Positions 1 through 25,061 of a stretch of 43,986 nt of DNA are shown here, one piece after another. This DNA comes from Verrucomicrobiota bacterium (lineage in GTDB: Bacteria; Verrucomicrobiota; Verrucomicrobiia; Limisphaerales; Palsa-1400), in the NCBI GenBank assembly GCA_050011995.1, contig JBEKIA010000031.1:1-43986 (forward strand). Reading direction: 5' to 3'. Below the pieces are notes generated by a model. The model saw only the letters and a program-made list of their open reading frames with translations. It was not told the origin of the DNA and did not search any database. Positions within the stretch are counted from its first letter, which is position 1, and each line of letters opens with the position of its first letter. Position numbers and translations under genes: made by a program.

Positions 1-112
1 TTCCCTTGTTCGCGCCGCCCACTTGCTGGGGCCGGGCGGGTGAGGGAGAATTGGTTTTTCGCTCACACTCATTCGGACGGCAGAATGTCAGACCCAAGGG
101 AAATTGTCAACC
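1..112 (-). promoter_or_regulatory. Conserved promoter-leader element, copy 1 (sigma70-like TTGACA-N17-CATTCT), driving a gene off the left edge
   Basis: -35 at 105-110 and -10 at 82-87 on the minus strand. The downstream sequence is strongly similar to 13527-13680 and 3815-3902. Confidence 0.7.
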
Positions 113-144
113 GGCAAGAACTCAGGCCTTGCGGGCCGGGGCTT

Positions 145-1338
145 TCAAGCCGCTGCCTGCTCTTGAGCGGCGGGGGAGGGATAACGGCCGGCCAGGTGGA
201 ACTGGCCGAGCATGGCGGCGCCGTCCAGGGAAGATTCTTCGCGGTATTCGTAATCAAAATCGCCGGTCCAGCGTTTCTTGGCGTCAATATAACCGCGGAT
301 CTTCGCGCCGCCGCCGGTGGTGGTAACCTTGCGGCCGAGTTTCACCTTCCCGGCGACCTCTTTGAGATGCTCGCGGTGGTAGAGGGCGTTGCCACGGATG
401 ATGGATAGCAACAGGTCCTGCCGGGTGGTTTCGAGCGTTACGCCGGTGAAGCTGGCCTTGAGTTGCTCCATCGAATAGCGCGAGCCGCCCAGGAAGGGCA
501 CGTACACCGGCAGCGATTCCTCGCGGCGGTCGCAGTCCGCGGCATCGAAAAATGAGCGAAGAGTCTCGGGAATATAGGCTTCGTAGAACTGCTGCCCGGT
601 CATGTCGCGGCAGAAGACGGAGTGGAACCACTCCAGAGCCTTGCCGCCGGTATTGAGCACGAAGAAGGTGACCCAGCGGCCCGGAATGGCGTGGCAACGA
701 ATGTTGTAGTTGGGCGAGCCGATGGGCCGGTCCACGCAGACGAAGGTGATGTCGCAGGTGCCGCAGACGCTGTTGATGTCGCCCGGTTCGGTGATGCCGC
801 CGGAAAGCGCGCTCAACACGGCGTCGTTGCCTCCGCACAGAACCACGCAATCGGCGGGCAGTCCGAAATGCGCGGCCATCTCCGGGAGGATGCGGCCAGC
901 CGGTTGGTGGGAGTGCATCAGATTCGGCAGCTTGGTTTCGGGGATGCCCGCGATTTCCAACACGTCCCGGTTCCAGGTAAGATCGTTGCGCGCGCTGTTG
1001 TAGAGGCCCGTAATGGAGACGGTGGAGGGGTCAATCACCCAGGCGCCGGTCAGGCGCTTGACCATGTGGGTGTTGGTGTGCCCGAACCTGGCCGCGGCGG
1101 CCCACACTTCCGGCCGCTTTTCCTTGAACCATAGAATCGAGCAGAGCGAAGAGCCTCCGGAGACCGGCAAGTTGCACGTTTCGCGGAGGAACTTCTCTTC
1201 TCCCACGGCCTCGCGGATGGCGCGGGCCTGCTCGTGGGAGCGCCCGTCGAAGAACAGGATGGCGGGGGCCAGAGCGGTCCCGTCTTCGGCCATGGGCAGC
1301 AGGCCGGGCGTGGTCACGGAAAATGACACGACTCCCAC
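145..1338 (-). pseudogene. FGGY-family carbohydrate kinase (xylulokinase-like), apparently lacking its N-terminus
   Basis: FGGY motifs PAILFFDGRS, GGNDA, CGT, PFLGGSR, TGGGAK and GAAMLG are present. The ORF begins at GVVSFS, with no N-terminal DxGTxxxK phosphate-1 motif, only 16 bp after the upstream stop. Confidence 0.7.
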
Positions 1339-1354
1339 AGCCTTAAGAAAGGGC

Positions 1355-2281
1355 TCACAACAAACCCTCCTCCGCGAGGAGGAGTCGCATGGCTTCCACC
1401 TGCTCCACAGTCAAAGGAAGCAGCGGACGGCGCGGAATGCCCCCTTTGAACCCGGCCAGAGTCATGGCGGCTTTGACGCCGGAAGGCCCGTAAGGGCCGG
1501 AGATGGCATGGTTGATGCGAGTCACGCGCTCCTGAAGTGGCAGGCCCCGTTGTTCATCCCGCTCCTGGCCACAGCGGAAAAGTCCGAGCGCCAGGTCCGG
1601 AAACGAATTGGCCAGGGAGACCGTGCCGCCCACCGAGCCGCCCATCATGGCCCGAAACAGGAAGTTGGCCGACCCCGCGAGGACATGAAAACTCCCGGAT
1701 TCGAACGGCAGGAAATTCTCGATGCCGCTGGATGCGCTGTCTTTCATGCCAACGATGTTGGGGTGCCCCGCCAGGCGGCCCACCAGCGCGGGCGTGAGAG
1801 TGATGCCGCAGAACCCGGGCGCATTGTACAAGACCACGGGAATCGGCGAGGCGTCGGCCAGCGTGGAGAAATAGCGGAACAGAACGTCATCGGTCATCTG
1901 CTTGCGGAAGTAGCCCGGGGAAAGCACCAGGCCGAAATCAGCGCCCAGCGCCCCGGCTTGGTGAAGGAACCGCTCAGCGTCGCGCTGGGCATCGTAGGCC
2001 GCGCCGGCCATCACCACTTGGCCGGGCCGCTTGTGCCCGATGATGCGGCGCAACACGGCCAGCCGCTCGCTCTCCGTGAGGCTGCGGTTCTCGCCGTTGG
2101 ATCCCAGCGCCAGAAAGCCCAGCAATCCGGTGGCGGCGTAGCGCTCGACGTTGAAGATCAGGGCGTCGTAATCCACCTCCTCCCCGTCGGTGAAGGGCGT
2201 CGAGATGGGCGCGAATACCCCGGCCATGCGGCTGCGCAACGGGCCGGTTTCAGGCGCGGGGGGCAGAGATTCGGTGGGCAT
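1355..2281 (-). CDS. DapA/NAL-family class I aldolase (HOGA/KDG aldolase-like)
   Basis: Motifs STPF, GSNGE, LYNAP and Schiff-base GMKDS. The start is uncertain; ATG 2281 was chosen. Confidence 0.85.
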   Translation of the reverse strand: MPTESLPPAPETGPLRSRMAGVFAPISTPFTDGEEVDYDALIFNVERYAATGLLGFLALGSNGENRSLTESERLAVLRRIIGHKRPGQVVMAGAAYDAQRDAERFLHQAGALGADFGLVLSPGYFRKQMTDDVLFRYFSTLADASPIPVVLYNAPGFCGITLTPALVGRLAGHPNIVGMKDSASSGIENFLPFESGSFHVLAGSANFLFRAMMGGSVGGTVSLANSFPDLALGLFRCGQERDEQRGLPLQERVTRINHAISGPYGPSGVKAAMTLAGFKGGIPRRPLLPLTVEQVEAMRLLLAEEGLL

Positions 2282-2326
2282 AAGCGGGTGTCGGTGCGGG
2301 CCGGGCCATGCCCCGCACACCTCAAG

Positions 2327-3679
2327 TCATTGTCCGCCTTTTGCGGCGTTCATGAACCTCCTCTGGTAAGAGACAACCAGGTTGCAGCTTGTGAACATGG
2401 CAAGGTAGGAGGGTTCGGCAGTGATCACCACACGTTTGTTCATGTCCCTGAACTCCTCTTCCGCCAGCAATTTGTCAATGTCAGGATAGTTCCTCGGTCC
2501 CTCCATGCTGCAGATGATCAGCCTTGTGTCCGGAAGGTTCGCGTTTCTCAAGACCCTCAGATTGTGTCTCACCCCATCCAACCCATCTCTTCCTTCGCTG
2601 GTGTCCACCTTTCTGTATTCCAGCAGCAACTTCGCGGTCTCCTTCACCGTATTCAGATCCAGGTTGGAATCATTGGCTGAAAAATAGTCGCCTTCGATCA
2701 TGAAGGTCCTCAATTGCTTGAGATGGGCTTCATTGCCGCCCAATTCGTATGCGGACAATAGAGCCTTGATATTCTGGCTCTGGTGATGCCGGTGCCGAAT
2801 AAAACTGTTGATAAAATAGGGTCTTGCCTGAAGGGCAAGCAGGGTCTGGTAAGGCTCGAACATGAGGGTGAAATTCACCCGGTACCCGTGCTCTTTGAGC
2901 ATCAGGGCGAGATTGTGCCCGTGCAACATGTCCTGGGTGCTGCCTTCTTGATACCTGCGGTAAAACTTCTTTCCCTCGGACAGGAGTTCCTGCACATTGG
3001 CGGCATTGACCGGTCCGGTATGCGGGACCTTAATAACCACCCTGTATTTTGTAAGCATCTCCCTGAATTTCGCCGCTTCCTCGAGGATCCGCTCTGTTGA
3101 AGAATTGAAAGGATCGTTCAATTCGACACTGATGTCCACCCCAGGACCCAGGATCCGCCCAAGTTCCCGCATCACTTCATCCCTTGTCTTGAACCGGTTG
3201 TCTTTATTGGCCTTGGGATTATTGATAAAGAGGTCGTAAATGATTCCTGGATTGCAGGTAAGGTTTGCCAAAAGGTCTTTGATCGGTTCCACTTCGTATG
3301 GGTTGGCGCTATCCGCCGAAAACAAGACATTCGTCGGTCTCTTGATGCCGTTCCGGCCATAGGAGATGTCCCTGGCCAAATCCACTTTCAGTACCGTCCC
3401 TTCCTCCAGCAAATAGTCAACCCTGAATCCCGCGGGGGTCTCGCCCTCCGGAACCTTGAACAGGTCAACCACCGCCCGGAATTCACGGGTAACCGCCGCA
3501 ACCTTCACCACGTTTTTCAGTTTCAAATACGTGTCGTAACATAGCGAATGTTCACAAACCCGTCTCAAGTAAGGTATGTCGCCCTCTTCTTGCCGGATAT
3601 CCTCGGACTCCAGCAATGTTCTCAATTTGCACTTTAGGGTCTGATGGTCTTCCATTCCACTCATTTGTGATTGTTTCAT
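2327..3679 (-). CDS. Transaldolase-family protein with an N-terminal extension
   Basis: SADSAN, LTCNP, ISVE, VVIKVP (Schiff-base Lys) and VNFTLMF motifs follow ~120 extra residues. GC is visibly lower than the flanks. The start is uncertain. Confidence 0.8.
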   Translation of the reverse strand: MKQSQMSGMEDHQTLKCKLRTLLESEDIRQEEGDIPYLRRVCEHSLCYDTYLKLKNVVKVAAVTREFRAVVDLFKVPEGETPAGFRVDYLLEEGTVLKVDLARDISYGRNGIKRPTNVLFSADSANPYEVEPIKDLLANLTCNPGIIYDLFINNPKANKDNRFKTRDEVMRELGRILGPGVDISVELNDPFNSSTERILEEAAKFREMLTKYRVVIKVPHTGPVNAANVQELLSEGKKFYRRYQEGSTQDMLHGHNLALMLKEHGYRVNFTLMFEPYQTLLALQARPYFINSFIRHRHHQSQNIKALLSAYELGGNEAHLKQLRTFMIEGDYFSANDSNLDLNTVKETAKLLLEYRKVDTSEGRDGLDGVRHNLRVLRNANLPDTRLIICSMEGPRNYPDIDKLLAEEEFRDMNKRVVITAEPSYLAMFTSCNLVVSYQRRFMNAAKGGQ

Positions 3680-3814
3680 TTCGTCACTATTGGCGTCTTT
3701 CCGTTTGCCTGGCGGGCAGGCCATGCTCCACGCCCTTGATGGCATCGAGTTCGCCTTCCATCTGTTTGACGGTCTTCACCGGAAGGATTCGATTTCGGGA
3801 GTGATGGCCACTGA

Positions 3815-3902
3815 TAGGAAATCGGCCTTTTCGCGCTGCCGGTTCATTTTCGCCACGCTCAATCTGGCGGCATGGTGTCAGACGGACGGGAGATTGTCAA
3901 CG
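3815..3902 (-). promoter_or_regulatory. Conserved promoter-leader element, copy 2 (TTGACA-N17-CACCAT)
   Basis: -35 at 3895-3900 and -10 at 3872-3877. Similar to copies 1 and 3 but more diverged downstream of the -10. Confidence 0.65.
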
Positions 3903-4245
3903 GTCAAATTCTGGAGATTCTGCCTGTGTTTTGCCGGCTTTGGCTGGCCGCAGGAGGAGCGGGCCGGAGTTGCGCGGGGGTCCGCCGGCGTTGCTGGAGC
4001 CGGTGTGCGGAATGGCCGCAGTTACGTTGACCGTCGCCTCCGAGCCGGTTGCGGAATGGCTGCATATTGCTTGAGATCATCGCGCGAATGGTCCGCCTCC
4101 ACAGGTTGAGGGGTGGGATTGCGCAAGATTTGGAAAGCAATCGCCAAGTTTTGGGCTGTCAGTTCCGCCGGTTCAGAGGCATGTTTTCTACAGACATTGG
4201 CGGTGTTTTTCGCCTGCCTGAAGAAAAGAAAGCGAAAGTGTAATC

Positions 4246-4773
4246 ATGGTCGCCACAACGGCACAAAAGAAACAGGGCCGGCTGAAGGCAGCGCTCGAAC
4301 ACGCTTCGGGGGACAAGCGCTTCAAGATTCTGGAAGTCCAGATGAAGAAGCACCTGTTCCGGCAGGACGCCTTGATCGAAGTGCTGCACAAGGCGCAGGA
4401 ACTGTTTGGCTGTCTCGATGACGATTTGCTGCTGTTCATTGCCTCCAAGCTCAAGCTGCCGCCCAGCCGCGTCTATGGGGTGGCGACGTTCTATCATTTC
4501 TTCACCCTCAAGCCCCAGGGTCTCCACACATGCGTCGTCTGCATGGGCACGGCCTGTTACGTCAAAGGGGCGGACAAAATTCTCGCCGCCGTCGAGGAAA
4601 GCACCCAAATCAAGCCCGGCGAAACCACCCCGGACAACCGGGTGTCGCTTCTGACCGCGCGGTGCATCGGCGCGTGCGGCATCGCGCCGGCCGTCGTGTA
4701 TGATGGCAAGGTGACCCCGCGCCAGACCGCCGCGGCGGCGCTGGATCAAATCCAGCAATGGAGGGCCAAATGA
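4246..4773 (+). CDS. hoxE: Bidirectional hydrogenase diaphorase subunit HoxE (NuoE-like, 2Fe-2S)
   Basis: LIEVLHKAQE, VYGVATFYHFF, CxGTAC and CIGACG motifs; first gene of the hox operon. Confidence 0.93.
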   Translation: MVATTAQKKQGRLKAALEHASGDKRFKILEVQMKKHLFRQDALIEVLHKAQELFGCLDDDLLLFIASKLKLPPSRVYGVATFYHFFTLKPQGLHTCVVCMGTACYVKGADKILAAVEESTQIKPGETTPDNRVSLLTARCIGACGIAPAVVYDGKVTPRQTAAAALDQIQQWRAK

Positions 4774-6410
4774 TTCACAGCGATCTGCTTCAAATCAAAG
4801 CCAGGGAACTGGCCGGGCGGAAAAAGATCACCCTCCGCTGCTGCATGGCCGCCGGCTGCATGTCCGCCGGCGCGCAAGGCGTGAAACAACAACTCGACAA
4901 AGCGGTGGCGGAAGCGGGTTTGCAAGACCAGGTGGAAGTGCGCGGCGTCGGCTGCCTGAAACTTTGCTGCGAGGGGCCGCTCGTCCAGGCCGACCCGCGG
5001 AATTCCCTCTACATCAGGGTGACGGCGGAAAGCGCGCCGTCCCTGGTCGCCGCGCTCCAAGGCGGCCGCACCGATGTCGCGCAAACCGATCCGAACGCGG
5101 CGTTTTTCAAAGGGCAAACGTTCATCGTGCTGGCCAACAGCGGCGTGATTGATCCGGAGCGCATCGAGTGCTACATCGCGGCGGACGGCTACCTGGCGTT
5201 GCATGAAGTGCTCAACGAAATGGCGCCCAAGGATGTTGTGGCGGCCATGGTGCAGAGCGGCTTGCGCGGTCGCGGCGGGGCGGGTTTTCCCACCGGGATC
5301 AAGTGGGGCACGGTCGCCAAATCGCCGGGCGCCAAGAAGTACGTGATATGCAACGCGGATGAGGGGGATCCCGGGGCGTTCATGGACCGGAGCGTGTTGG
5401 AGAGCGATCCGCACAGCGTGCTGGAAGGCATGGCCATTGCGGCCTACGCGGTCGGGGCGGACCAGGGTTTCATCTACGTGCGGGCGGAATATCCGCTGGC
5501 CATCAGCCGGTTGCAGATCGCCATCAAGCAGGCCAAGCAAATGGGACTGCTCGGCGCCGGCATATTTGAATCGCCCTTCAGCTTCAACGTGGACCTGCGC
5601 ATCGGGGCGGGGGCGTTTGTTTGCGGCGAGGAAACCGCGCTCATGGCCTCGGTCGAAGGCAAGCGCGGGGCGCCGCGGCCGCGGCCGCCGTTTCCGGCGG
5701 AGAGCGGGTTGTGGGGCTACCCCACCCTCATCAACAACGTGGAAACCTTCGCCAACGTGCCGCCGATTTATCGCCGCGGCGCGGAGTGGTTCGCCGGCAT
5801 TGGCACGGAGAAAAGCAAGGGAACGAAAGTTTTTGCGCTGGCGGGCAAGATCAAGAACACCGGCCTGATCGAAGTGCCGATGGGCACGCCGTTGAGGGTC
5901 ATCGTCCAGGAATTGGGCGGGGGCGCTCCGAACGGCGGGCAGATCAAGGCCGTCCAAACCGGCGGGCCGTCGGGGGGCTGCATTCCGGCGCAGCAACTGG
6001 ACACGCCGGTGGATTACGAATCTTTGGGCAAGCTCGGCTCGATCATGGGTTCGGGGGGCATGATTGTCATGGACGAGCAGACCAACATGGTGGAGATCGC
6101 CCGGTTCTTCATGGAATTTTGCATGGACGAATCCTGCGGCAAGTGCATTCCCTGCCGGGCCGGGACGGCGCAGATGCACCATTTGCTGGACAAGATCATC
6201 CGGCGCCAGGCCACGGCCCGGGACCTGGCCAAGCTGGAGGAGCTTTGCGACATGGTCAAAAGCACCAGCCTTTGCGGCCTCGGGCAGACCGCGCCCAACC
6301 CGACCTTGAGCACGCTGCGCTTTTTCCGCAATGAGTACGAGGAATTGCTCCGGGCCGATCCCGGCGGCCCGCCCGGCCAGGGGGATTTGAAGCAACCGCC
6401 GGCGACGTAA
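4770..6410 (+). CDS. hoxF: HoxF (NuoF-like NAD/FMN-binding subunit)
   Basis: GLRGRGGAGFPTG, CNADEGDPG, GAFVCGEET, ESCGKCIPCR and SLCGLG motifs. ATGA overlap with the hoxE stop and a GGAGG RBS favour start 4770. Confidence 0.95.
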   Translation: MIHSDLLQIKARELAGRKKITLRCCMAAGCMSAGAQGVKQQLDKAVAEAGLQDQVEVRGVGCLKLCCEGPLVQADPRNSLYIRVTAESAPSLVAALQGGRTDVAQTDPNAAFFKGQTFIVLANSGVIDPERIECYIAADGYLALHEVLNEMAPKDVVAAMVQSGLRGRGGAGFPTGIKWGTVAKSPGAKKYVICNADEGDPGAFMDRSVLESDPHSVLEGMAIAAYAVGADQGFIYVRAEYPLAISRLQIAIKQAKQMGLLGAGIFESPFSFNVDLRIGAGAFVCGEETALMASVEGKRGAPRPRPPFPAESGLWGYPTLINNVETFANVPPIYRRGAEWFAGIGTEKSKGTKVFALAGKIKNTGLIEVPMGTPLRVIVQELGGGAPNGGQIKAVQTGGPSGGCIPAQQLDTPVDYESLGKLGSIMGSGGMIVMDEQTNMVEIARFFMEFCMDESCGKCIPCRAGTAQMHHLLDKIIRRQATARDLAKLEELCDMVKSTSLCGLGQTAPNPTLSTLRFFRNEYEELLRADPGGPPGQGDLKQPPAT

Positions 6411-6422
6411 TGGAAAACTTTT

Positions 6423-7145
6423 ATGGCTGCCAAAACATTAACCATTAACGGCCAGGAGATCAGCGCCGAGGAAGGCGCGACCATTCTGCAGGCGGCGGAG
6501 GAGGCCGGGGTGAAAATCCCGACCTTGTGCCACCTGGACGGCGTGTATGACGTGGGGGCCTGCCGGCTTTGCCTGGTGGAAGTGGCCGGCCTGCCCAAGC
6601 CGGTTCCGGCTTGCACCACCAAAGTCGCCGAGGGCATGGGGATCAAAACCGACAGCGACCGGCTGCGAAAATATCGCCGCATGACGCTGGAATTGCTGCT
6701 GGCCGAACGCAATCACGTTTGCGCCGTGTGCGTGGCCAACGGCCATTGCGAGTTGCAGACCTTCGCCTGGAGCCAGGGCATTGATCACGTCCGCTACGAT
6801 TATTGCTTCCCGAAATGGGACGTGGACGACACCCATCGCCTCTTTGGCATGGATCATAACCGCTGCATCCTTTGCACGCGTTGCGTGCGCGTCTGCTGGC
6901 ACATTGAGGGCGCGGGCACCAAGAACGTTTCGGGCCGCGGCGCCAACGCCCGCATCATCACCGACCTCAACCAGCCGTGGGGCGAGGCGGATTCCTGCAC
7001 CTCCTGCGGCAAATGCGTGCAAGGCTGCCCGACCGGGGCGCTCTTCCATAAAGGTTCGACGGTGGCCGAAATGGAACGCGACCGCGGCAAACTCGAATTC
7101 ATCGTCACCGCCCGGGAGAAAAAACAATGGATCGCATCCGATTAG
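6423..7145 (+). CDS. hoxU: HoxU (NuoG-like Fe-S subunit)
   Basis: IPTLC, GACRLC, HxCxxC and two CxxCxxC ferredoxin motifs. Confidence 0.95.
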
Positions 7146-7675
7146 CCACAGCCTGGTTCGGCGGCTGTTCGGGCTGCCACATGTCGTTTCTCGACCTCGA
7201 CGAGTTCCTGATCGAACTCGCCCCCAAGGCGGACCTGGTGTACAGCCCGTTCGCGGACATGAAGGAATATCCGGAAAACGTGGACGTGTGCCTCATCGAA
7301 GGCGCCATCTGCAACGAGGACAATCTGGCGCTGCTGCACAAGATTCGCGCCCGGACCAGACTGCTGGCCGCCTTCGGCGATTGCGCCGTGACCGGCAACG
7401 TGCCCGCCATGCGCAATCAACTCGGCCCCGGCAACAGGGAGAGCGTCCTGCGGCGCGCCTACCTCGAGACCGCCCGGCACAACCCAAGGCTGCCCCAGGA
7501 AGACAGCATCGTGCCGGCGCTGCTGCCGCGCGTCATGCCGGTGCATGAAGTGGTGAAGGTTGAATACTTTCTGCCCGGCTGTCCGCCGCCGGCGGAATGC
7601 ATCAAGGCGCTCCTCGGCCCCCTGTTGATCGGCGCCGGGCCGAAACTGGAAGGAATGCAACTCAGGTTTGGATGA
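7127..7675 (+). CDS. hoxY: HoxY, [NiFe]-hydrogenase small subunit
   Basis: [12 protein letters not shown] and PGCPP motifs; short single-cluster small subunit. Confidence 0.95.
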
Positions 7676-7678
7676 GGT

Positions 7679-9103
7679 ATGTCAAAACGAATTGTCATTG
7701 ATCCCGTGACCCGCATCGAGGGCCACGCCAAGATCAGCATCTTCATGGACGACGAGGGCAACGTGTCGGACGCCGAATTTCACGTCGTGGAGTTTCGCGG
7801 CTTCGAGAAATTCTGCGAGGGCCGTCCTTATAGCGAAATGCCCGGCATCACGCAGCGCATCTGCGGCATCTGCCCCGTCAGCCACACGCTCGCCTCGGCC
7901 AAGGCGGGCGACGCCATCATGGCGGTCAGCATCCCCCCCGCCGCCGGCAAATTGCGCCGCCTGATGAACCTGGGCCAGATCGTGCAGAGCCATGCGCTGA
8001 GTTTTTTCCTCTTGAGCGCGCCGGATTTCCTGCTCGGCTGGGACACCCCCCCGGCGCAACGAAATGTTTTCGGCCTCATCGCCTCAAACCCGGGACTGGC
8101 CCGCGCCGGCATCCGCCTGCGCCAATTCGGCCAGGAGGTGATTGAGATTATCGGCGGCAAGAAAATTCATCCCGCCTGGGCCGTGCCCGGCGGGGCGCGC
8201 AATCCGTTGACCGGGGAAGGGCGCGACCGGATTGGCGCGCGGCTGCCGGAAGCGTTCGCCACAACCAAACTGGCCTTGGACCTGTTCCAAAAGACGATGG
8301 AGACGCACCAGCGCGAGATGCAAATTCTCGGCAACTTTCCGTCGCTGTTCATGGGCCTGGTGACGCCGGACGGCGCCTGGGAGCACTACGACGGCAACCT
8401 GCGCTTCAGCGACAGCAGCGGGAGCATCATTGCCGACCAATTGGAGCCGCGGCGGTATGAGGAGTTCATCGGCGAATCGGTGCAAGGCTCGTCCTATCTC
8501 AAGTCGCCCTATTACACGCCGCTGGGTTTCCCGGAGGGCATGTATCGCGTCGGCCCCCTGGCGCGGCTCAACATCAGCGAGCGCATGGGCGCGCCGCAGG
8601 CGGACGCCGCGCTGAGGGATTTCAAGAGCCTGGGGCGGGGCGCGGTCACCTCCTCGTTTCTCTATCACTACGCGCGGCTGATCGAAATCCTGGCCGCGCT
8701 GGAATTCATCGAGCGCTCTCTGGACGACCCGGATTTGTTGAGCGAAGACCTGCGGGCCGACGCCGGCATCAACAGCCTGCGCGGGGTGGGCGCGAGCGAG
8801 GCGCCGCGCGGCACGCTGTTCCACGATTACACCGTGGATCGCAACGGCCTTCTGGAAAAGGTCAACCTGATCGTTGCCACCGGCCAAAATAACCTGGCCA
8901 TGAATCAGACGGTGGCCCAAATCGCGCGGCATTACGTCCGGGGGAATGTCATTCCCGAACCGCTGCTCAACCGGGTCGAACACGGCATCCGCTGTTACGA
9001 TCCGTGCCTGAGCTGCTCAACTCATGCCGTCGGACAAATGCCGCTGCACATCCAGTTGATCGCCCCAAACGGCGCGGTCTTGAACGAAGCCATGCGCGGT
9101 TGA
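7679..9103 (+). CDS. hoxH: HoxH, group 3d [NiFe]-hydrogenase large subunit
   Basis: [10 protein letters not shown]1 [15 protein letters not shown] and L2 DPCLSCSTH followed by a cleavable C-terminal extension. Confidence 0.96.
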
Positions 9104-9121
9104 ATTGCGTCCGGTGAGGGC

Positions 9122-9259
9122 GGGGCGCATTGCACTTTTTGGGTGGTTTTTCCTAATCTTAATCCTAATCTCAATCTTGTTCGGAGAAGCGGGGCAGGAT
9201 TAGGTTAAGATTAAGATTATGATTAAGATTAGGAGGGAATACTCAAAATGAAATGTGCC
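9122..9259 (+). repeat. Palindromic REP/MITE-like element with (AATCYT)n hexamer arms, copy A
   Basis: GGGGCGCATTGCACTTTTTGGG, (TAATCY)n, spacer, (GATTAR)n, degenerate right end. Near-identical to the reverse complement of 11752-11885. Confidence 0.85.
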
Positions 9260-9287
9260 GGTCCCCCAACTCCGGCCCCCTGCCCTC

Positions 9288-9794
9288 ATGAGCCGCATGC
9301 CATCCTCCATCCGGCGCGATGATTTTCTCATCGTCGGCTACGGCAACACGCTGCGCGGCGATGATGGCGCAGGCCCGCGTGTGGCCGAGGCTGTGGCGGC
9401 CTTGAATTATCCCGGCGCGCGCGCCCTGGCATGCGCGCTGCTCACGCCCGAGTTGGCCGACCCCATTTCACAAGCTCGGGCCGTCCTCTTCGTGGACGCC
9501 GCCGTGGATGCGCCGCGCGAAGTCCGCTTGCGCAAAATCGAACCGGCCGAGTCCGCGCAAATCATGTCCCACGCCGCCGGCCCCGCCGCGCTGCTGGCGC
9601 TGGCCCGCGACGTCTTTGGTCGCGCGCCCGAAGCCTGGTGGCTGACCATCCCGGCGGTGAAGTTCGATTTCGGCGGCGATTTTTCGCCCCAAACACAACA
9701 AGGCATCGCCCGCGCGCTGGAGAAAATTGAGTCCCTCTGCCGCCAGAAGTCAGCCGGCGCGTCCCCGCGCCCCGACCAGCCCGGGCAACATTGA
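9288..9794 (+). CDS. hoxW: Hydrogenase maturation endopeptidase (HoxW-like)
   Basis: VGYGNTLRGDDGAG, LTPE, FVDA and SH motifs; located directly after hoxH. Confidence 0.88.
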   Translation: MSRMPSSIRRDDFLIVGYGNTLRGDDGAGPRVAEAVAALNYPGARALACALLTPELADPISQARAVLFVDAAVDAPREVRLRKIEPAESAQIMSHAAGPAALLALARDVFGRAPEAWWLTIPAVKFDFGGDFSPQTQQGIARALEKIESLCRQKSAGASPRPDQPGQH

Positions 9795-9995
9795 TAAGCC
9801 TTGCCTCTGAGTGGCAGAGCCGTCCCGGCTCTGTCTGGCGTGGGCAAAAGAAGCACTTGGAGAGGCGGGAGATCGGTGGGCAAATTTTGCCCGGCGGAAG
9901 GGCGGGCAGGCGAATTGACACCTCAAGAAACGCCGCAACCGGCAATTTCCGCTCTCAAAACCGCCATTTTCCGCGATTTTCATGTGTACAGCGGT

Positions 9996-10010
9996 TGGCA
10001 CGAATTCTGA
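9996..10010 (+). promoter_or_regulatory. Possible sigma54 promoter (TGGCACG-N4-CTGA)
   Basis: Perfect -24 element but imperfect -12, 14 bp upstream of the response regulator start. Confidence 0.35.
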
Positions 10011-10024
10011 TATGAAGACTGTCC

Positions 10025-10504
10025 ATGAAGAGCATACTCGTAATTGATGACAACGACGACGTCAGATCCATTGTCACGAGCGTATTGCGCAATTTTGGAT
10101 TTGCGGTGCGCGAGGCCACCAGCGGGGAGTCCGCCATTCGCATGGCGCTGGCCGAGAAGCCGGACTTGATTATCAGCGACGTGCGCATGCCAGGGATGGA
10201 TGGGCATCGCTTGTTGAGCGCCATCCGCGAGTTGCAATCCACCGCCGCCATTCCCTTTATTCTGATGACCGGCTCTGGAAGCCACGAGGATTTCCGCCGC
10301 AGCATGGTCTGCGGGGCCGATGATTATTTGCAGAAGCCTTTCACGCCGGACGAGTTGATTGAGGCGGTGTTATCGCGCCTGATCCGCCAGACGGATTTGC
10401 AGATGGAGGCCTATAACCACGCCAACAGGTTGCGCCTGGCCGGGTCCGAACACCCTGCCCTCGACGGCGCCATCGCTGTGGCGGGCGGCCTGCGCGTCGT
10501 GTAA
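10025..10504 (+). CDS. Response regulator, receiver domain with a short C-terminal tail
   Basis: ILVIDD, IISDVRMPGMDG, LMTG and GADDYLQKPF motifs; no recognisable output domain. Confidence 0.9.
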   Translation: MKSILVIDDNDDVRSIVTSVLRNFGFAVREATSGESAIRMALAEKPDLIISDVRMPGMDGHRLLSAIRELQSTAAIPFILMTGSGSHEDFRRSMVCGADDYLQKPFTPDELIEAVLSRLIRQTDLQMEAYNHANRLRLAGSEHPALDGAIAVAGGLRVV

Positions 10505-10586
10505 AAAGGAATTACGAGGGCATGGCCGCCGGCGGCGAAACCGGAGGTTCGCCGGGCGACGTGGCGGGCGGGCGGGAGGGAGGGGC

Positions 10587-10883
10587 TCAGGCCGGCGGCG
10601 GAGGCGATTTCAAAACCCCTTCGCGCATTTCCTTGCCGGGCTTGAATTTGACGACGGCGCGCTGGGGAATCGCCACGTTCTTCTCCGGCTGGTTGGGATT
10701 GCGGCCGATGCGCGCCTTGCGAACCTTGACTTCAAAAACTCCAAAGTTGCGCAACTCGACGGTTTCCCTGGCCGCGACCGCCTCGCAAATGAGGTCCAGG
10801 GTGCGCTGCACCACTTCCAGGACTTTTTGCTGGACCTGGCCCGTTTCTTCGCTAATCCGGATTACGATATCACGCTTTGTCAT
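10587..10883 (-). CDS. HU/IHF-family DNA-binding protein
   Basis: MTKRD, VELRNFGVF, RIGRNP and VKFKPGK motifs. Confidence 0.93.
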   Translation of the reverse strand: MTKRDIVIRISEETGQVQQKVLEVVQRTLDLICEAVAARETVELRNFGVFEVKVRKARIGRNPNQPEKNVAIPQRAVVKFKPGKEMREGVLKSPPPPA

Positions 10884-10918
10884 AGCATTTAAACCACTGT
10901 GCGTACAGGACTTGTGTT

Positions 10919-10947
10919 ATTTAAGCGCGGCGGCGGCCTTTGGTCAA
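10919..10947 (-). promoter_or_regulatory. Putative sigma70 promoter of the HU gene (TTGACC-N17-TTAAAT)
   Basis: Hexamer match with 17-bp spacing, ~35 bp upstream of the start. Confidence 0.5.
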
Positions 10948-10990
10948 GCGGAGAGACGCGATTCTGTGGGATTTTCTGTAGTGGAAACCC

Positions 10991-11284
10991 TTAGCTCTCA
11001 ATCACCCCAATTTCGACCGGTTCCACTTTGATGCCCAGTTCCTCCAGCCATCGGATGGCGGCTTTGACGGCCGGGGGCGGGCCGCTCAATTCCAGGCAAA
11101 CGATGCCGATCTCATCGGTGACGCTGGCCTGGCGGACATTGGTGATGACCGGGAATTTGCGGCCCAGTTCCCAAATGACCGGCGTGGTGATGAACTTGGG
11201 CGGATACATCAGCCAGAGGCGCGTTTGCGCCGGCGCTGTTGCGGGACCGCCTTTGGGCTTTGGTTTGATTTTTCTGGCTGGCAT
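10991..11284 (-). CDS. NIL-domain protein
   Basis: LxYP...PVIWELGRKF.V.TNVRQA.V....GIVCLEL pattern. Start is ATG 11284 or the coupled GTG 11338. Confidence 0.8.
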   Translation of the reverse strand: MPARKIKPKPKGGPATAPAQTRLWLMYPPKFITTPVIWELGRKFPVITNVRQASVTDEIGIVCLELSGPPPAVKAAIRWLEELGIKVEPVEIGVIES

Positions 11285-11334
11285 AAGCGTCTCTTCTTCC
11301 GGCTTCCTAATTCCCAATCTGGCTTCCCCATTCC

Positions 11335-11610
11335 TCACCCTCCCGCGATGGCGGGAATGATGCTCACTTCATCGCCCTCCTTCAGGGCCGTTTCCTGGTT
11401 TTGCAGAAACCGGATGTCTTCCTCGTTGACATAGACGTTGACGAAGCGGCGGATGCCGCCGGTCTCATCCACCAGACGTTCCCGGATGCCGGGGAAGCGT
11501 TTCTGCAATTCGGCAATCGCCTCCCCGATGGTGGCGGCGTTGACTTCGATCAGCTCCTCGTTGTTGGTCAACTTGCGGAGCGGCGTTGGGATTCGCACTT
11601 TCTTTGGCAT
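11335..11610 (-). CDS. MoaD/ThiS/CysO-like ubiquitin-fold sulfur carrier
   Basis: IPTPLR, RRFVNVYVNEEDIR and C-terminal PAIAGG. Confidence 0.92.
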   Translation of the reverse strand: MPKKVRIPTPLRKLTNNEELIEVNAATIGEAIAELQKRFPGIRERLVDETGGIRRFVNVYVNEEDIRFLQNQETALKEGDEVSIIPAIAGG

Positions 11611-11696
11611 AAATATAAAATCCGCGCTTCAAAACCTTCCGAAAAGAGAGCACGAGCCGCGCCCGGCGCCGCCCGTCCTCCCTCTCCGTTTTCCCA

Positions 11697-11725
11697 ATCT
11701 TGCCGCCGCAGACAGTCTGATTCAA
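11697..11725 (-). promoter_or_regulatory. Putative sigma70 promoter of the moaD-like/NIL operon (TTGAAT-N17-CAAGAT)
   Basis: Hexamer match with 17-bp spacing. Confidence 0.4.
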
Positions 11726-11751
11726 GACTTTTTCATCCCCCTGCCTGCCGC

Positions 11752-11885
11752 GGGGCGCATTCACTTTTTTGGGTTTCCCCTCGTAATCTTAATCTTAATC
11801 CTAATCCTGCCCCGCCTTCTCCGAACAAGATTAAGATTAGGATTAGGATTAGGAAAAAACCACCCCAAAAAGTGGAATGCGCCCC
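11752..11885 (-). repeat. Palindromic REP/MITE-like element with hexamer arms, copy B
   Basis: Terminal inverted repeats GGGGCGCATTCACTTTTTTGGG / CCCCAAAAAGTGGAATGCGCCCC enclose complementary AATCTT/AAGATT arrays. Abuts the stop at 11886. Confidence 0.88.
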
Positions 11886-13523
11886 CTACCGCGTGTAAAG
11901 CGTCACATGCAGCGCGACGGGGTTTTTGCCGAATTTCGGCCCGCCGTTGTCCGTCTCATCGCCATTCCAGATGCGCAGGGGCTTGAACTTGCCGTTCTCG
12001 TAGCTGACTTCCTCGACCCGCAGATAATGCCATTCCTTTCCCGCTTTCGGGCCAATGGGGCGAAACGTCAGCCTGGCCGAGGAGCCGATGCACATAAGCT
12101 CATTCTCCCCAAGCTGCGCCACCAGCAACTGCCCAACCGCCGGCTGCGTGTTGGTCGTCGCGCCGCGGCCCGCCCTGCCCCCCGGTCCGAAGCTCACGTT
12201 TGCCTGCCAGGAGCCCAGATCGAGCGTCTGCGCGGCGTGGTCATCGTGCTCGATGGCGGCTTGGAGCTTGCCCTCAAAGGACCAGCGCGCCAACTCGCGC
12301 ATCATCGGGCCAAGCAGCGCGTAGTTGGCTGAAAAGGGCGCCAGCCGCTCGGCCGTTCGCTGGGCTGTCTCCCCGCTGCCGTTATCATCCAGCGGGCCGG
12401 TGCAAAAGCCTATGGAACCATGCGCCATGACCGCAAAAAGCATCCGCCCGAACTCCACGCCCTCGCCGATTTCCGGGATCATGAGGGGATTGTCCGGCCG
12501 GTTGTAGAGGTCGAGAACTTTGAGCTGGCGCGGACTGTCGGAGAGGTAAATGTCCGGCGCAACCAGGTCCAGCGCCGGGGCGGCCAATCTCCAGATCGGG
12601 ATCACGTTGTCCGTCGGGCCACCGCTTTCGTAGCCGCCGGCCTTGGGATTGCTCAACGGGTCGCGCAACGCCGCGTTGGCGTAGAGCGGCAGCGGATAGG
12701 CCGCCTTGCCCGCCGCCGCCACCCGCCCGACGTAATGCGCCACCCAATAAGCCTGGAAAAACTCGTCGGCATCGTCGCCAAACACCGCCGGCCAGTTCGC
12801 GCCCGCCGCGGCGGGGGCCTCCTTTTTCAACTCCTTGAGCAACTTCGGCTGGAGCATTTCCGCCGGCACCGGCGATTCAAAGATCTTCTGGGCCGCCGGA
12901 GAATAATCCCGCACCGAGCCCCACGCGCCGCTTTCATTTTCCACCTGAACCATCAACACGGTGTGCTGCGGGTCGGCTTGTTTGAGGTGGCCCATGAATG
13001 CCGCGAAAGCCGTCGCATCCAACTCCATCGCCGCCTGCGTGTGCGGCGAGGGCGAATCCACCGGACGGCCGTTGCGCCCGGTGATATTGGGATACTTGAC
13101 GCCCGCCTCCAGCTTCATCCACTCCGGCAGGTAGTGGGCGCTGCCATTTTTCCAGGTGGCGAACCACAACAAGACCAGGCGAACGTTGTGCCGGCGGGCT
13201 TCCTTGAGCAGCGTGTCCACGACGGAAAAATCGAATTTCCCCCGCGCCGGCTCGATTTGCTCCCAATAGACGGGCATCTCCACCGTGTTGGCGTGGATGG
13301 TCTCGACCGCCCTCCACACCTCCGGCAACTGGCTGGGCCAGGCGCTGGAGTTATTGATCTGCCCCGCGAACATGAAGAACGGCTGCCCGTCCACCAGGAG
13401 CGCGTGCCGCCCGTTTTGCTCCACGATCTTTGGCAGGTCCGCCGCCTGTCCGCGCACCGCGGCCAGCGACGCCAAAATCCCGGCGCAGGCGAGCCATTTT
13501 GTCCACTGCGATTGATGCAACAT
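11886..13523 (-). CDS. Secreted GH35-like beta-galactosidase (DUF5597-type C-terminus)
   Basis: Signal peptide; ANTVEMPVYWEQIEP, WFATWKNG, MVQVENE (acid/base), APDIY and LMIPE (nucleophile); GGAAGGAG RBS. Confidence 0.88.
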   Translation of the reverse strand: MLHQSQWTKWLACAGILASLAAVRGQAADLPKIVEQNGRHALLVDGQPFFMFAGQINNSSAWPSQLPEVWRAVETIHANTVEMPVYWEQIEPARGKFDFSVVDTLLKEARRHNVRLVLLWFATWKNGSAHYLPEWMKLEAGVKYPNITGRNGRPVDSPSPHTQAAMELDATAFAAFMGHLKQADPQHTVLMVQVENESGAWGSVRDYSPAAQKIFESPVPAEMLQPKLLKELKKEAPAAAGANWPAVFGDDADEFFQAYWVAHYVGRVAAAGKAAYPLPLYANAALRDPLSNPKAGGYESGGPTDNVIPIWRLAAPALDLVAPDIYLSDSPRQLKVLDLYNRPDNPLMIPEIGEGVEFGRMLFAVMAHGSIGFCTGPLDDNGSGETAQRTAERLAPFSANYALLGPMMRELARWSFEGKLQAAIEHDDHAAQTLDLGSWQANVSFGPGGRAGRGATTNTQPAVGQLLVAQLGENELMCIGSSARLTFRPIGPKAGKEWHYLRVEEVSYENGKFKPLRIWNGDETDNGGPKFGKNPVALHVTLYTR

Positions 13524-13526
13524 AAG

Positions 13527-13680
13527 TCATCTCCTTCCTATGGGCGGGAATTCGCTTTTTCGCGCCGCCCATTTGTTGATGCCGCGCGGGTGAGGGGCGC
13601 GGCGCGCGTGAGGGGAAATTGGTTCTTCGCTCACACTCATTCTGAGGGCATGGTGTGGGAGAGACCGGAGATTGTCAACC
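13527..13680 (-). promoter_or_regulatory. Conserved promoter-leader element, copy 3 (TTGACA-N17-CACCAT), containing a 37-codon uORF (13640-13527)
   Basis: -35 at 13673-13678 and -10 at 13650-13655. The uORF MSVSEEPISPHARRAPHPRGINKWAARKSEFPPIGRR stops 3 bp before the GH35 ATG. Confidence 0.7.
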
Positions 13681-13878
13681 ATGATTTATTGGGGCGATGA
13701 TTACGGGCGTTTTTTTGACGTGTTTATCGGACACGGCGCCGTGGTGGATTTGCGTCCGCTGCGCCAAAAACAAATTGGAAATAACGGCCGCCACCCGGAG
13801 CCGGTGCTGCTGTCGGAGTTCTGAAATCGCCGAAGCGGGACGAATGCGACCCCAATTCCCGTTGCCTCCGTGCCTGGC

Positions 13879-14418
13879 TCAGTCGCGGCGCGGCCCATTC
13901 CGGTCGCCGGCCAGGCGCCGCGCGGCGGCCAGAACCCGCAAGGCGATGGGCCGGAGAACCCGGCGCAAGGCCGGAGTCATGCGGGGGCTGACGGTGAACG
14001 GGTCCTGGACTTCAATCGCGAATATCTTGATCCGGCGCGGAACCGGCAAGCCCAACTGCCTGCCCAGCGCCACCATTTCTCCCACCCCTAGAAAATGCGG
14101 GGACACCATCGGCAGGACCTTGAGCTGGCTGCCGTCCAATTCATGGAGAAAGCCGGGGGGCGACTGTCCGGTCTGCACGGCGTCCACCAGAACCAAGTCC
14201 TCAAAGCCCGCGATGTAATCCAGAAGGGCCAGCCCCATTTCCGAAGTTTCCTGGACCTCAATCCCGTCGGAGCCGGAGAGGCGCCGCCTGATTTCCCGCG
14301 CAACGCGCAATCCCACCGCATCGTCGCTCAGAATGTCGTTGCCCAGGCCGAGCACCAGAACGGGTTTCTTGCGGGGCGGCGTTTTGCGCGGCGGCCTTTG
14401 CGGCGAAGTCGTTGCCAT
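13879..14418 (-). CDS. Second hydrogenase maturation protease (HycI/HyaD family)
   Basis: VLGLGNDILSDDAVG, LVDA and SPH motifs. Confidence 0.9.
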   Translation of the reverse strand: MATTSPQRPPRKTPPRKKPVLVLGLGNDILSDDAVGLRVAREIRRRLSGSDGIEVQETSEMGLALLDYIAGFEDLVLVDAVQTGQSPPGFLHELDGSQLKVLPMVSPHFLGVGEMVALGRQLGLPVPRRIKIFAIEVQDPFTVSPRMTPALRRVLRPIALRVLAAARRLAGDRNGPRRD

Positions 14419-14570
14419 GCTTCCATCTTGAGCCAAACATGTCCCATTTCAATGCCATTCCGGTTCCGTTGTTTTTTGAGAAAGTTTATGGCGGAATTGG
14501 CCAGGCGGAGACGCGGTGTAGATTAGACTATGGATTTGGAGCCTTGTGCATTAGTCTGGAGCAGGAAGGA

Positions 14571-18693: not shown

Positions 18694-18815
18694 GTAATGC
18701 CTCAGTCATGGACGGTAGGGCGAGACTCTGTCGAGCCGAAACTCGATTTCCTGGGAAAAAGTCGCGGCTCGACAGAGTCTCGCCCCACCTTTGCCCGCCG
18801 TCACTGACGCGTTAC
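18694..18815. repeat. GTAG-type REP doublet / MITE-like element
   Basis: 25-bp inverted repeat (24/25 match) GGTAGGGCGAGACTCTGTCGAGCCG at 18714-18789, nested in outer inverted repeats GTAATGCCTCAGTCA / TCACTGACGCGTTAC. Confidence 0.8.
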
Positions 18816-19215: not shown

Positions 19216-19767
19216 CTAGGCCATCATTTTGCGTTTCATCAAGCCGAGGGCTGTCAGAACTCCACCGAGCAGCATGACCGTGGAACCGCCGTCAGGTGCA
19301 TGATCGGTATTAGCGTACACATCCAATTGCTCACTCGTTAATGTGCAGTCAAGGGTGACGGAAGCGCTGAATTGGCCATTCTGGCTTTGGATGTAACCCC
19401 ATTGTGTCGAGTTCAGGCTGAAATCCACGGTTTGTGAGTCAGAACTACCATTGCCGTAAAGCGTTGTTTGGCTATTATCAATTGTCAAGTAGACCGGGTC
19501 GTAGCGCAAGTCACTGATCGTCAAATAGAGGTCTCCGCCGTAAATTGAATATGCCGTGTCACTGAACACGGTGCCAACCGCAGGAGGAGCAGTAGAAATG
19601 GACTTCAACTGTGCCGTCGTGAAATTAAGAGTAATCGGATTGTCCCAATAATTAGCATTTACAGATAGGCTTTCCTGAAATGTTGGATCGTCCTGAGCGT
19701 AGGCTTGCAGGCCTGCTGCTAACAATGCTACCAATGCGCCGCCAAGTAATGTGCTGTTTTTTTTCAT
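19216..19767 (-). CDS. VPDSG-CTERM (PEP-CTERM-like) exosortase substrate 1
   Basis: Signal peptide MKKNST...AYA; S/T/N/D-rich body; C-terminal APDGGST + transmembrane helix + KRK. Confidence 0.9.
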   Translation of the reverse strand: MKKNSTLLGGALVALLAAGLQAYAQDDPTFQESLSVNANYWDNPITLNFTTAQLKSISTAPPAVGTVFSDTAYSIYGGDLYLTISDLRYDPVYLTIDNSQTTLYGNGSSDSQTVDFSLNSTQWGYIQSQNGQFSASVTLDCTLTSEQLDVYANTDHAPDGGSTVMLLGGVLTALGLMKRKMMA

Positions 19768-19825
19768 AATGATTGTGAGAATTTCAAATTCTCGAGTTCT
19801 TTTGGGTTGCTGTTTCAATTGTTCC

Positions 19826-20033
19826 GGCTCTTCGACGTTTTCAGTGGAATCCGCCCCGCTCGTAGCGCAGGTTTCCAAACCTGCCGTGACGCCGATTTCC
19901 AAATCGGCGAATCGGGGAATCTCGCTGTCGCCGCGGGCTTGGAAGCCCGCGACACGGCAGACTTGGAAGTCTGCGCTACAAGCCCGACACTCTGCGTGTC
20001 GAACCCGCAATCCACTGAACTCGTCAAGGAACC
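19826..20033. mobile_element. ~208-bp MITE/REP-like composite palindrome in the leader of VPDSG gene 1
   Basis: Outer imperfect 23-bp inverted repeats. Inner GTAG...CTAC unit (19862-19979) carries four hairpins with TTCCAA/TTGGAA centres. Confidence 0.75.
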
Positions 20034-20114
20034 ATTTTTCTTGTTTATTGCTTATTTGCTTATCTGCTTATTTGTTCGCAGCACGCGCTGGAGCAAACAT
20101 TCAGTGCTAGATGA

Positions 20115-20129
20115 GCTAGAACTGTGCCA
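20115..20129 (-). promoter_or_regulatory. Sigma54 promoter (TGGCACA-N4-TAGC) of VPDSG gene 1
   Basis: Correct GG-N10-GC spacing; preceded by AACT as in the second copy. Confidence 0.75.
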
Positions 20130-20227
20130 AGTTATGCTCCCTCTATTCATTCGTCTCGCAAGTGTCTGGGCGATAGAGACTTGCCATTCCGTGCAACTCC
20201 TTCTCAAATCCGGTCCGAGGAAGCAAC

Positions 20228-20335
20228 TGTAATCATTTCCAACGCGTGTTGGAGATTTTCGGCGAAAAAAGGATGGAACCTCCTCAATATCAACAAGATG
20301 TGAACGTCACGGCCCAAGTGTAATTGAACCCGACG
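20228..20335. promoter_or_regulatory. Two putative PrsR enhancer sites (20228-20244 and 20319-20335)
   Basis: TGTAATCATTTCCAACG and TGTAATTGAACCCGACG; same motif and spacing as upstream of VPDSG gene 2. Confidence 0.6.
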
Positions 20336-20411
20336 TTTTTCCAGGCATGGCAGGGTTCGGCCCGTCGCCGGCAGCTCACTGGCGCCCCCATGATGGTGAA
20401 TTTTACAGGAG

Positions 20412-20450
20412 CAAGATTAAGAGGGGAGCCCAAAAAAGTGGAATGCGCCC
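20412..20450. repeat. Half copy (C) of the hexamer-arm palindromic element
   Basis: AAGATTAAGAGGGGAGCCCAAAAAAGTGGAATGCGCCC, 16 bp after the prsR stop. Confidence 0.7.
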
Positions 20451-20466
20451 GCGGCTGTGGCTGGGA

Positions 20467-23963: not shown

Positions 23964-24018
23964 CGGTTCACTGAAACAGGCCGGCGCATCGGCGCTGAAC
24001 CAGTTTGTTGTTCAGGCG

Positions 24019-24047
24019 ATAGTACGCCGGGAATGCGGGGCCGGCAA
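24019..24047 (-). promoter_or_regulatory. Putative sigma70 promoter of prsKR (TTGCCG-N17-TACTAT)
   Basis: Good -10 with 17-bp spacing, located after the upstream terminator. Confidence 0.55.
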
Positions 24048-24106
24048 TGGAAAAGCGGCGCATCCAACATGTGGATTGCCGCCGCAGGAGAAAAGCGAAG
24101 GGACAG

Positions 24107-24142
24107 AAAAAATAAAAAAGGCAGGGCAATGAAGCCCTGCCT
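24107..24142 (-). terminator. Intrinsic terminator of VPDSG-CTERM gene 2
   Basis: Minus strand AGGCAGGGC-TTCATT-GCCCTGCCT followed by TTTTTATTTTTT. Confidence 0.85.
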
Positions 24143-24171
24143 CCGTGAAAACCATTGATGCTTATGTTCTT

Positions 24172-24714
24172 TTAGCTCACCAGCTTGCGACGGAACATCT
24201 GCAGGCCGAACAACGCGCCGCCCAAGAGGGCAACCGTCAGGCCGCCGTCTGGAATATTGGGAACAACGACACCGAAAGCCTCGCCGCCACTTCCATTGCC
24301 CCAAAGACCACCGTCCTGCGCGGAAATGTCGCCTAACGTCGGAGCTATTGGAGTGTAGAAATCCAACGTCGCGCCGGTGACGCCAGGAGAGAACAGCCAA
24401 TTCACAGCGCCTGAAGAGAGGTTAGAACCGTCATTCGAACCAGTGATGCCAACCGGGTTGGCAGGAGTTGTGTTGAAGTACACACTGAGCGACGACAGGG
24501 CTGAAGGAGCGCCACTGAAAACATACTGATATTGGTAGTCACCCGAATAGGTCCCGGTTGACTCAAGTGTGGCGGTGGAAGCCACCGTGAAGTTTTGCGC
24601 GCCATTAACCAAGCTGGCGTTGCCGTTCAGATTCGCCAGAGCGACCTGGCTGAGGCTCGAAGTTAGGACGACTGCCGCCGTTGCGGCAAGGATTGTTTTG
24701 AAGGACTTTTTCAT
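24172..24714 (-). CDS. VPDSG-CTERM (PEP-CTERM-like) exosortase substrate 2
   Basis: Signal peptide MKKSFK...ALA; S/T/G/N-rich body; C-terminal IPDGGLT + transmembrane helix + RRK. Confidence 0.9.
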   Translation of the reverse strand: MKKSFKTILAATAAVVLTSSLSQVALANLNGNASLVNGAQNFTVASTATLESTGTYSGDYQYQYVFSGAPSALSSLSVYFNTTPANPVGITGSNDGSNLSSGAVNWLFSPGVTGATLDFYTPIAPTLGDISAQDGGLWGNGSGGEAFGVVVPNIPDGGLTVALLGGALFGLQMFRRKLVS

Positions 24715-25030: not shown

Positions 25031-25061
25031 TTTTCAGGGCTGTTGGCACTCTGGAACAGGG

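Follow-up and report, generated by a model that had tools for sequence, protein, structure and literature searches.

A putatively duplicated sigma-70-type promoter and 5′ leader upstream of unrelated sugar genes in a Verrucomicrobiota contig

Three related copies, two of them upstream of sugar genes

The contig JBEKIA010000031.1 of a Verrucomicrobiota bacterium, analyzed here over 43,986 nt (the window, i.e., the whole stretch of DNA under study), carries three related sequences on its minus strand, labelled A, B and C. Two of them lie in front of carbohydrate genes that are not homologous to each other. The best explanation of the three sequences is that they are paralogous copies of one regulatory module, consisting of a sigma-70-type promoter and the first 80–130 nt of the predicted transcript. 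We consider it somewhat probable that duplication of this promoter together with its 5′ leader has put unrelated sugar genes under one control. To our knowledge, uncultured Verrucomicrobiota have hardly been described with regard to their promoters and the regulation of sugar genes. An active module would provide a clean natural case of regulatory rewiring via the copying of a promoter and its leader, in which a foreign-looking transaldolase-family gene and a native-looking gene for a putatively secreted beta-galactosidase share control.

An earlier sequence-only reading of this DNA had reported three minus-strand copies and a similarity extending far beyond a transcription-factor site, and both claims are borne out. 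Copy A (1..112) is cut by the window edge and points at a gene off-window. Copy B (~3819..3902) is a short variant and copy C (~13549..13680) is the longest that is visible; the extent of both was drawn from blastn, a motif search and direct alignment. In blastn comparisons against the whole window, A and C align over 130 columns at 70% identity with two gaps, one of them of 18 nt (E 7e-14), and their ungapped pieces reach 91% over 35 nt and 87% over 38 nt. The match between A and B covers 62 columns at 77% (E 6e-8) and that between B and C covers 54 columns at 81.5% (E 2e-8). An exact search of the window for GTTGACAAT-N-TCC with zero mismatches returned positions 99-111, 3889-3901 and 13667-13679 only. 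Likewise, at E <0.01 a profile built on the 62-nt core recovered only the three copies from the window and no fourth. Such a profile is circular for the copies themselves, for which the pairwise blastn values serve as independent evidence.

The similarity has a sharp beginning. Over the first 51 nt of the copies 32 columns are invariant, with pairs identical at 37, 38 and 39 of the 51 positions, while the 40 nt upstream are poorly alike (10/40, 18/40 for A and C, and 10/40). The homology edge is thus abrupt and falls 1–2 nt before the -35 hexamer in all three copies. Copy B shares with the others a core of ~55–60 nt and a 3′ block and is without the middle part of ~30–48 nt that is common to A and C; in copy C, 18 nt are duplicated in tandem at 13581-13615. 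This duplication and the deletion that marks B argue for descent from one sequence and not for convergence on a binding site. We infer that the copies arose by duplication and that the genes behind them are co-regulated.

Predicted promoters and conserved leaders

The -35 hexamer TTGACA is matched at 6/6 positions in every copy (A 105-110; B 3895-3900; C 13673-13678, all on the minus strand). By direct reading on the same strand, the -10 hexamer is CATTCT in A (82-87) and CACCAT in B (3872-3877) and C (13650-13655). A spacer of exactly 17 nt separates the two hexamers in all three copies, just as the 17-bp spacing claimed earlier. The spacer ends in TGA in A and B, placing a TG one base upstream of the -10 and suggesting an extended -10, a feature that C does not have. 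TTGACA occurs 18 times in the window; five of these sites are intergenic and three of the five belong to copies A, B and C. From these features we infer promoter activity for the copies, with transcription predicted to start ~7 nt after the -10, at ~75-73 in A, ~3865-3864 in B and ~13643-13642 in C. Readings of the sites as sigma-54 (GG-N10-GC) or extracytoplasmic function (ECF)-type promoters, as CRP/FNR-type sites or as a LacI-type dyad were dropped, as none of these is kept in all three copies when inspected by eye.

Directly after the -10, each copy has TGCC followed by a start-site block, GA(A/T)TGAG(T/C)GTG(A)GCGAA, located by motif search on the minus strand at 58-74 in A (GAATGAGTGTGAGCGAA), 3848-3864 in B and 13626-13642 in C. 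A second, 3′ block, GGC(G/A)GCGCGAA, lies at 5-19 in A, 3826-3840 in B and 13555-13569 in C. The blocks GA(A/T)TGAG(T/C)GTG..GCGAA and GC(G/A)GCGCGAA noted previously were therefore located in each of the three copies. The distance from the start-site block to the 3′ block varies among copies (13, 44 and 62 nt). A conserved (A/T)TG stands 1–3 nt after the predicted transcription start, as ATG in A (70-72) and C (13638-13640) and as TTG in B. Toward the GH35 gene, the end of leader C (13524..13572, minus strand) forms a perfect 8-bp hairpin (13540-13547/13565-13572) that encloses part of the 3′ block. It is followed by a Shine-Dalgarno-like AAGGAG and then by the stop codon of a small open reading frame (ORF) at 13527-13529, 3 nt before the GH35 ATG. 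The remainder of leader B (3680..3818, minus strand) is specific to that copy and has no similarity to A or C by blastn.

Conservation between A and C is uneven. The -35 block is identical at 13/14 positions and the predicted transcribed leader at 70/82 (19/21 + 13/16 + 38/45), compared with 6/16 in the spacer and -10, though the spacer length is still 17. In Fisher tests the spacer differs significantly from the leader (p=1.6e-4) and from the -35 block (p=0.002). The spacer of copy B matches A at 10/16 and C at 11/16 positions, and its leader matches each at 15/21. Conservation of the -35 and the leader but not of the spacer is the pattern expected under constraint on the former two with a free spacer. 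The simplest reading suggests an old duplication followed by such constraint. Since the leader is better conserved than the spacer, it may have a regulatory role.

Genes downstream of the copies

Copies B and C lie on the same strand as the next gene, 120–220 nt from its start (2/2 visible copies). It had been claimed that two copies precede unrelated carbohydrate genes and that the third points off-window. This agrees with the annotation, in which a gene from a GH35/DUF5597 family follows C and a transaldolase-family operon follows B; the genes behind the two copies belong to different Pfam families and are not homologous.

The gene behind copy C (11886..13523, minus strand) encodes a GH35/DUF5597 beta-galactosidase of 545 aa according to Pfam and NCBIfam. 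The match to NCBIfam GH35_fam (E 1e-138, 463 bits) falls just under the curated 500-bit cut-off. Its N-terminus looks signal-peptide-like by eye and the protein is putatively secreted. A terminator-like stem with a T run comes next at 11879-11861, from which the gene appears to be monocistronic. Its GC content at third codon positions (GC3) is 0.83, which is host-like. Directly 3′ of the GH35 stop codon, and overlapping the terminator-like site, is a nested inverted repeat (11752-11885) with outer arms of 22 nt that are 86% complementary and inner arms made up of about four hexamer units, TAATCT/TAATCC versus AGGATT/AAGATT. Upstream of copy C, on the same strand, lies a gene for a hydrogenase maturation protease.

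Copy B is placed in a divergent intergenic region between a sugar operon and a hox hydrogenase operon that starts at 4246 on the plus strand. The sugar operon (145..3679, minus strand; identified from Pfam, NCBIfam, homologues and composition) has three genes, encoding a transaldolase-family protein of ~450 aa (2327-3679; Pfam, homologues), a DHDPS-family aldolase or dehydratase (1355-2320; Pfam, NCBIfam) and an FGGY sugar kinase (145-1338; Pfam, NCBIfam). The start of the transaldolase-family gene is most likely ATG 3679 or ATG 3664: the N-termini of seven homologues align from window residue 18 to 31 onward, and this alignment disfavours ATG 3745. With either of the two likelier starts, leader B would be ~185–200 nt long.

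The transaldolase-family gene has a GC3 of 0.66 compared with ~0.8, and the other two genes of the operon are host-like in composition. The earlier description of a low-GC transaldolase cluster thus holds for the first gene and not for the two behind it. Named relatives of the protein come from Clostridia, Eubacterium, Rectinema and Spirochaetales metagenome-assembled genomes (MAGs). Based on the low GC3 and these relatives, the gene is likely a horizontal acquisition. The claim that the cassette switches on newly acquired sugar genes could accordingly hold only for this foreign-looking gene and not for the host-like GH35 gene. Proteins 87–96% identical to the GH35 and transaldolase-family proteins sit on other contigs. 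The transaldolase-family protein matches TAL_FSA only partially (residues 144-316). Its homologues of 440–455 aa number more than 1700, and those named among the best 120 listed are mostly from MAGs of anaerobes (Clostridia, Spirochaetes, Bacteroidales).

The match of the FGGY kinase to the FGGY_N and xylulokinase models sets in only at model position ~71-73, and the kinase ORF starts 16 nt past the preceding stop codon. The kinase may either be N-terminally truncated, without the first nucleotide-binding segment, or represent an unusual short form. Copy A starts 32 nt past the stop codon of the kinase (145), and a scan for a stem plus T-run terminator between this stop and copy A found none.

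A model of shared control and points that weigh against it

In the proposed model, the module would have been copied within a Verrucomicrobiota genome and would now head the GH35 gene, the transaldolase-family/aldolase/kinase operon and the off-window gene. RNA polymerase would start at the predicted positions past the -10, so that the three transcripts would open with the same ~20-nt block. This start-site block and the downstream GGC(G/A)GCGCGAA block would together act as a control site common to the copies. An operator at +1 to +25, bound by a single regulator, is the likeliest form of such a site, and an RNA signal is less likely. The genes behind the copies would then be expressed together. 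As such, the module looks like an ordinary reuse of a regulatory cassette and opens no new element class. The -35/start-site/leader module with its three natural variants would also offer ready constructs for reporter work. A bolder version is doubtful in our estimation. In it, the leader of A and C, reduced in B, would represent a new cis-regulatory element confined to one Verrucomicrobiota lineage and acting either as an RNA or as an operator close to the start site. Through this element, secreted glycosidases and downstream sugar-phosphate metabolism would respond to a single signal. Its spread would have come from joint copying of promoter and leader, also onto the horizontally acquired transaldolase-family gene.

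Several observations weigh against shared control by a duplicated promoter and leader. The -10 hexamers keep A2 and T6 in all three copies and match the TATAAT consensus at 3/6 positions only. A consensus promoter scan, which demands at least 4/6 in each hexamer, listed none of the three sites because of these -10 matches. Annotation with Pfam and NCBIfam showed no regulator gene adjoining B or C, and no operator dyad or clear repeat kept in all three copies was found. A 19-nt periodicity (TGACA-N14-TGACA-N14-TGAG) was considered and rejected; offset 19 gives the top self-similarity (43% vs ~24%), a value that 113 of 2000 column shuffles reach, which is not significant. The A/C segments compared in the Fisher tests were picked with the alignment already in view. 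Moreover, the uneven conservation between A and C could also be the outcome of gene conversion, or reflect a pair of paralogous genes behind the two copies. All three known copies sit within 13.7 kb. Finally, a 17-base pattern of invariant positions, searched against 185,579 species genomes (the source genome not among them), gave 39 loci and no true match, in an exact search that any copy differing at one of the 17 positions would escape. Each of the 39 is a single hit in an unrelated phylum, and they score <10 bits on the core profile compared with ~60 for true copies, so we regard them as chance matches. No relative of the module is recovered by the exact pattern among the species genomes.

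Alternative explanations

The conserved transcribed part could instead be a structured cis-regulatory RNA, for instance a riboswitch or a protein-binding leader, that responds to a sugar-related signal while the promoter merely travels along. The far better conservation of the A/C leaders (70/82) than of the spacer just upstream would fit such an RNA, and the 10 differences between the small ORFs of A and C show no third-codon-position bias, which places the constraint at the nucleotide level. Leader C folds better than most of its shuffled versions (z -2.28; 3/200 shuffles fold as well), and in B and C a helix is predicted whose 5′ arm lies directly before the GCGCGAAAA block, with arm sequences that differ between the two. 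On the other hand, no folding advantage over shuffled sequences is seen for leader B (z 0.20) or leader A (z 0.10), and the hairpin common to A and C is not in B. The consensus fold has 7 pairs with 0 compensatory changes, from three sequences, a number too small to test covariation. The sole A/C substitution in the candidate CCGCCC/GGGCGG helix, by direct reading, breaks a pair and is uncompensated. The covariance models of Rfam 15 (4227 families, scored at the family gathering threshold) gave no match in the whole window, and E-value searches of the three regions returned only noise (E >=0.38). With these results, the shared cis-regulatory RNA that the sequence-only reading offered as an option is not supported, and we hold a structured RNA to be unlikely.

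The copies might also belong to a generic dispersed repeat, such as one resembling a miniature inverted-repeat transposable element (MITE) or a repetitive extragenic palindromic (REP) sequence, or be insertion-sequence ends with an outward -35 that stand before genes by accident. There are several intergenic copies, each with a sharp 5′ edge that falls at an identical base, and a 9-nt inverted repeat (3900-3908/3765-3773, 89% complementary) lies on either side of copy B. The copies have no terminal inverted repeats or target-site duplications in common, however, and only copy-specific pairs of 8–9 nt are present. The copies are all alike in their orientation toward the next gene and they number only three in 44 kb, clustered as described above. 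A blastn search of copy C against plasmids and phages in distant mode gave no match, in line with the lack of a true match among the 39 pattern hits in species genomes. A generic repeat is improbable on these grounds, and the earlier description of the cassette as mobile finds no support in the shared ends of the copies or in plasmids, phages and species genomes.

A similarly improbable explanation is that A and C are the upstream regions of two paralogous genes that arose by ordinary gene duplication, leaving only B as a true case of promoter reuse. Since copy A is truncated where the window ends, its long similarity to C could simply stem from the duplication of a gene. This similarity reaches the very edge of the window, with 38 of the last 45 nt identical, and the 40 nt upstream of the copies are more alike for A and C (18/40) than for the other pairs (10/40). 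This leaves B unexplained, as it shares the core with both and stands before a non-homologous gene, and the near-random A/C spacer speaks against a block duplication in the recent past. The window's two hydrogenase maturation proteases are not recent paralogues, and they thus give no evidence for a segmental duplication carrying copy C.

Least probable of the four, and very doubtful, is a short and nearly leaderless upstream ORF beginning at (A/T)TGAG(T/C)GTG, the translation of which would control the gene behind. In A and C, the ATG just past the predicted start opens the same frame (MSVSE...), which is kept across the 18-nt indel, and the 37-codon ORF of C stops shortly before the GH35 ATG and after the Shine-Dalgarno-like sequence, making coupling possible. 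The A-C differences, however, fall at codon positions 1, 2 and 3 in 3, 5 and 2 cases over 72 nt, and 8 of the 10 alter the residue, so that purifying selection on the peptide is not seen. Copy B has TTG and a frame change between the conserved blocks, its ORF stops ~100 nt short of the gene, and the ORF of C has a GC3 of ~0.59 (hand count) compared with ~0.8 in genes. A phmmer search with the C peptide (37 aa) against 1.84 billion representative proteins gave one hit at E<=0.001, which is spurious (no matched stretch; BLASTP E 0.099). Short ORFs are seldom predicted, which makes this negative a weak one. A function on the plus strand was rejected, as in that orientation two of the three copies would point at the antisense strand of genes, namely those for the kinase and the protease; the plus-strand ORF at 13697-14218 has an atypical codon-position GC pattern.

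Comparison with described systems

Within-genome reuse of promoters has been catalogued as putative mobile promoters (PMPs), of which thousands of families are known (Nijveen, Matus-Garcia and van Passel, 2012; PMC3575422). PMPs are defined by >=80% identity over >=50 nt between upstream regions in one genome, with non-paralogous downstream coding sequences; the regions searched extend from -150 to -50 relative to the start codon, and PMP pairs average 92% identity (PMC3575422). Our module resembles them in being similar non-coding DNA, including the -35, that stands before non-paralogous genes in one genome. The identity of B and C (81.5% over 54) is above the PMP threshold, while that of A and B (77% over 62) and of A and C (70% over 130) is below it. 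The downstream genes, transaldolase-family for B and GH35/DUF5597 for C, are non-paralogous, being from different Pfam families. The B-C match lies at -156 to -103 for C; for B the position is the same with ATG 3745 and becomes ~-222 to -169 with the likelier ATG 3679. Most PMPs have no Rfam match and no associated insertion sequence (PMC3575422), and neither does the module. It differs from them in its identity of 73–81%, well under the PMP average, and in the confinement of all copies to a short region. The module fits the PMP phenomenon as a sequence pattern, and its mobility is putative.

Promoter-bearing miniature repeats such as Correia, ERIC and REPIN have also been named in this context (PMC3575422). 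Like these, the module is short repeated intergenic DNA able to supply a promoter. Unlike them, it is without common terminal inverted repeats and without target duplications, and has few visible copies.

A regulon with a shared operator, such as sugar-catabolic operons that answer to a single repressor, offers another comparison, since several carbohydrate genes carry the same sequence around their predicted transcript starts. The transcript-start region is a classic repressor site. Such a site is 14–20 bp long, whereas the module is alike over 55–130 nt with shared indels, which points to common descent and not just to an operator site. There is also no dyad in all three copies and no neighbouring regulator gene was seen. 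Riboswitches and other 5′ leader RNAs are similar to the module in that its leader is better conserved than the spacer and sits before metabolic genes. The differences are the lack of a match to any Rfam family (0/4227), the absence of a folding signal in two of the three copies and the loss of the middle part in B. A literature search on Verrucomicrobia promoter or regulon motifs and on VPDSG-CTERM found nothing relevant.

Other features of the window

The operon divergent from copy B encodes a hox-type NAD-linked [NiFe] hydrogenase (4246-9103, plus strand; 4246-9794 with its maturation protease). The second hydrogenase maturation protease, at 13879-14436 on the minus strand, is non-paralogous to the first. 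The two hydrogenase regions bracket a response regulator, an HU/IHF-like ORF and a ThiS/MoaD-like ORF (the latter two by eye) as well as the GH35 gene.

A 30-nt inverted repeat (18714-18789, 90% complementary, with a 16-nt loop) ends 4 nt before the start of a GH42 beta-galactosidase gene (18709, minus strand), and its 20-nt core has no other occurrence in the window. It may be a translational or operator hairpin that serves this second galactosidase independently of the three-copy module. The region 19216-30092 (minus strand), adjacent to the sugar genes, contains two VPDSG-CTERM proteins, an exosortase, a long TPR protein, a polysaccharide export protein and a sigma-54 two-component pair, and is annotated on this gene content as an exosortase and exopolysaccharide locus. 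The dTDP-glucose 4,6-dehydratase of the window has its four named relatives (4/4) in Verrucomicrobiota or Verrucomicrobiae MAGs, at 78–81% identity.

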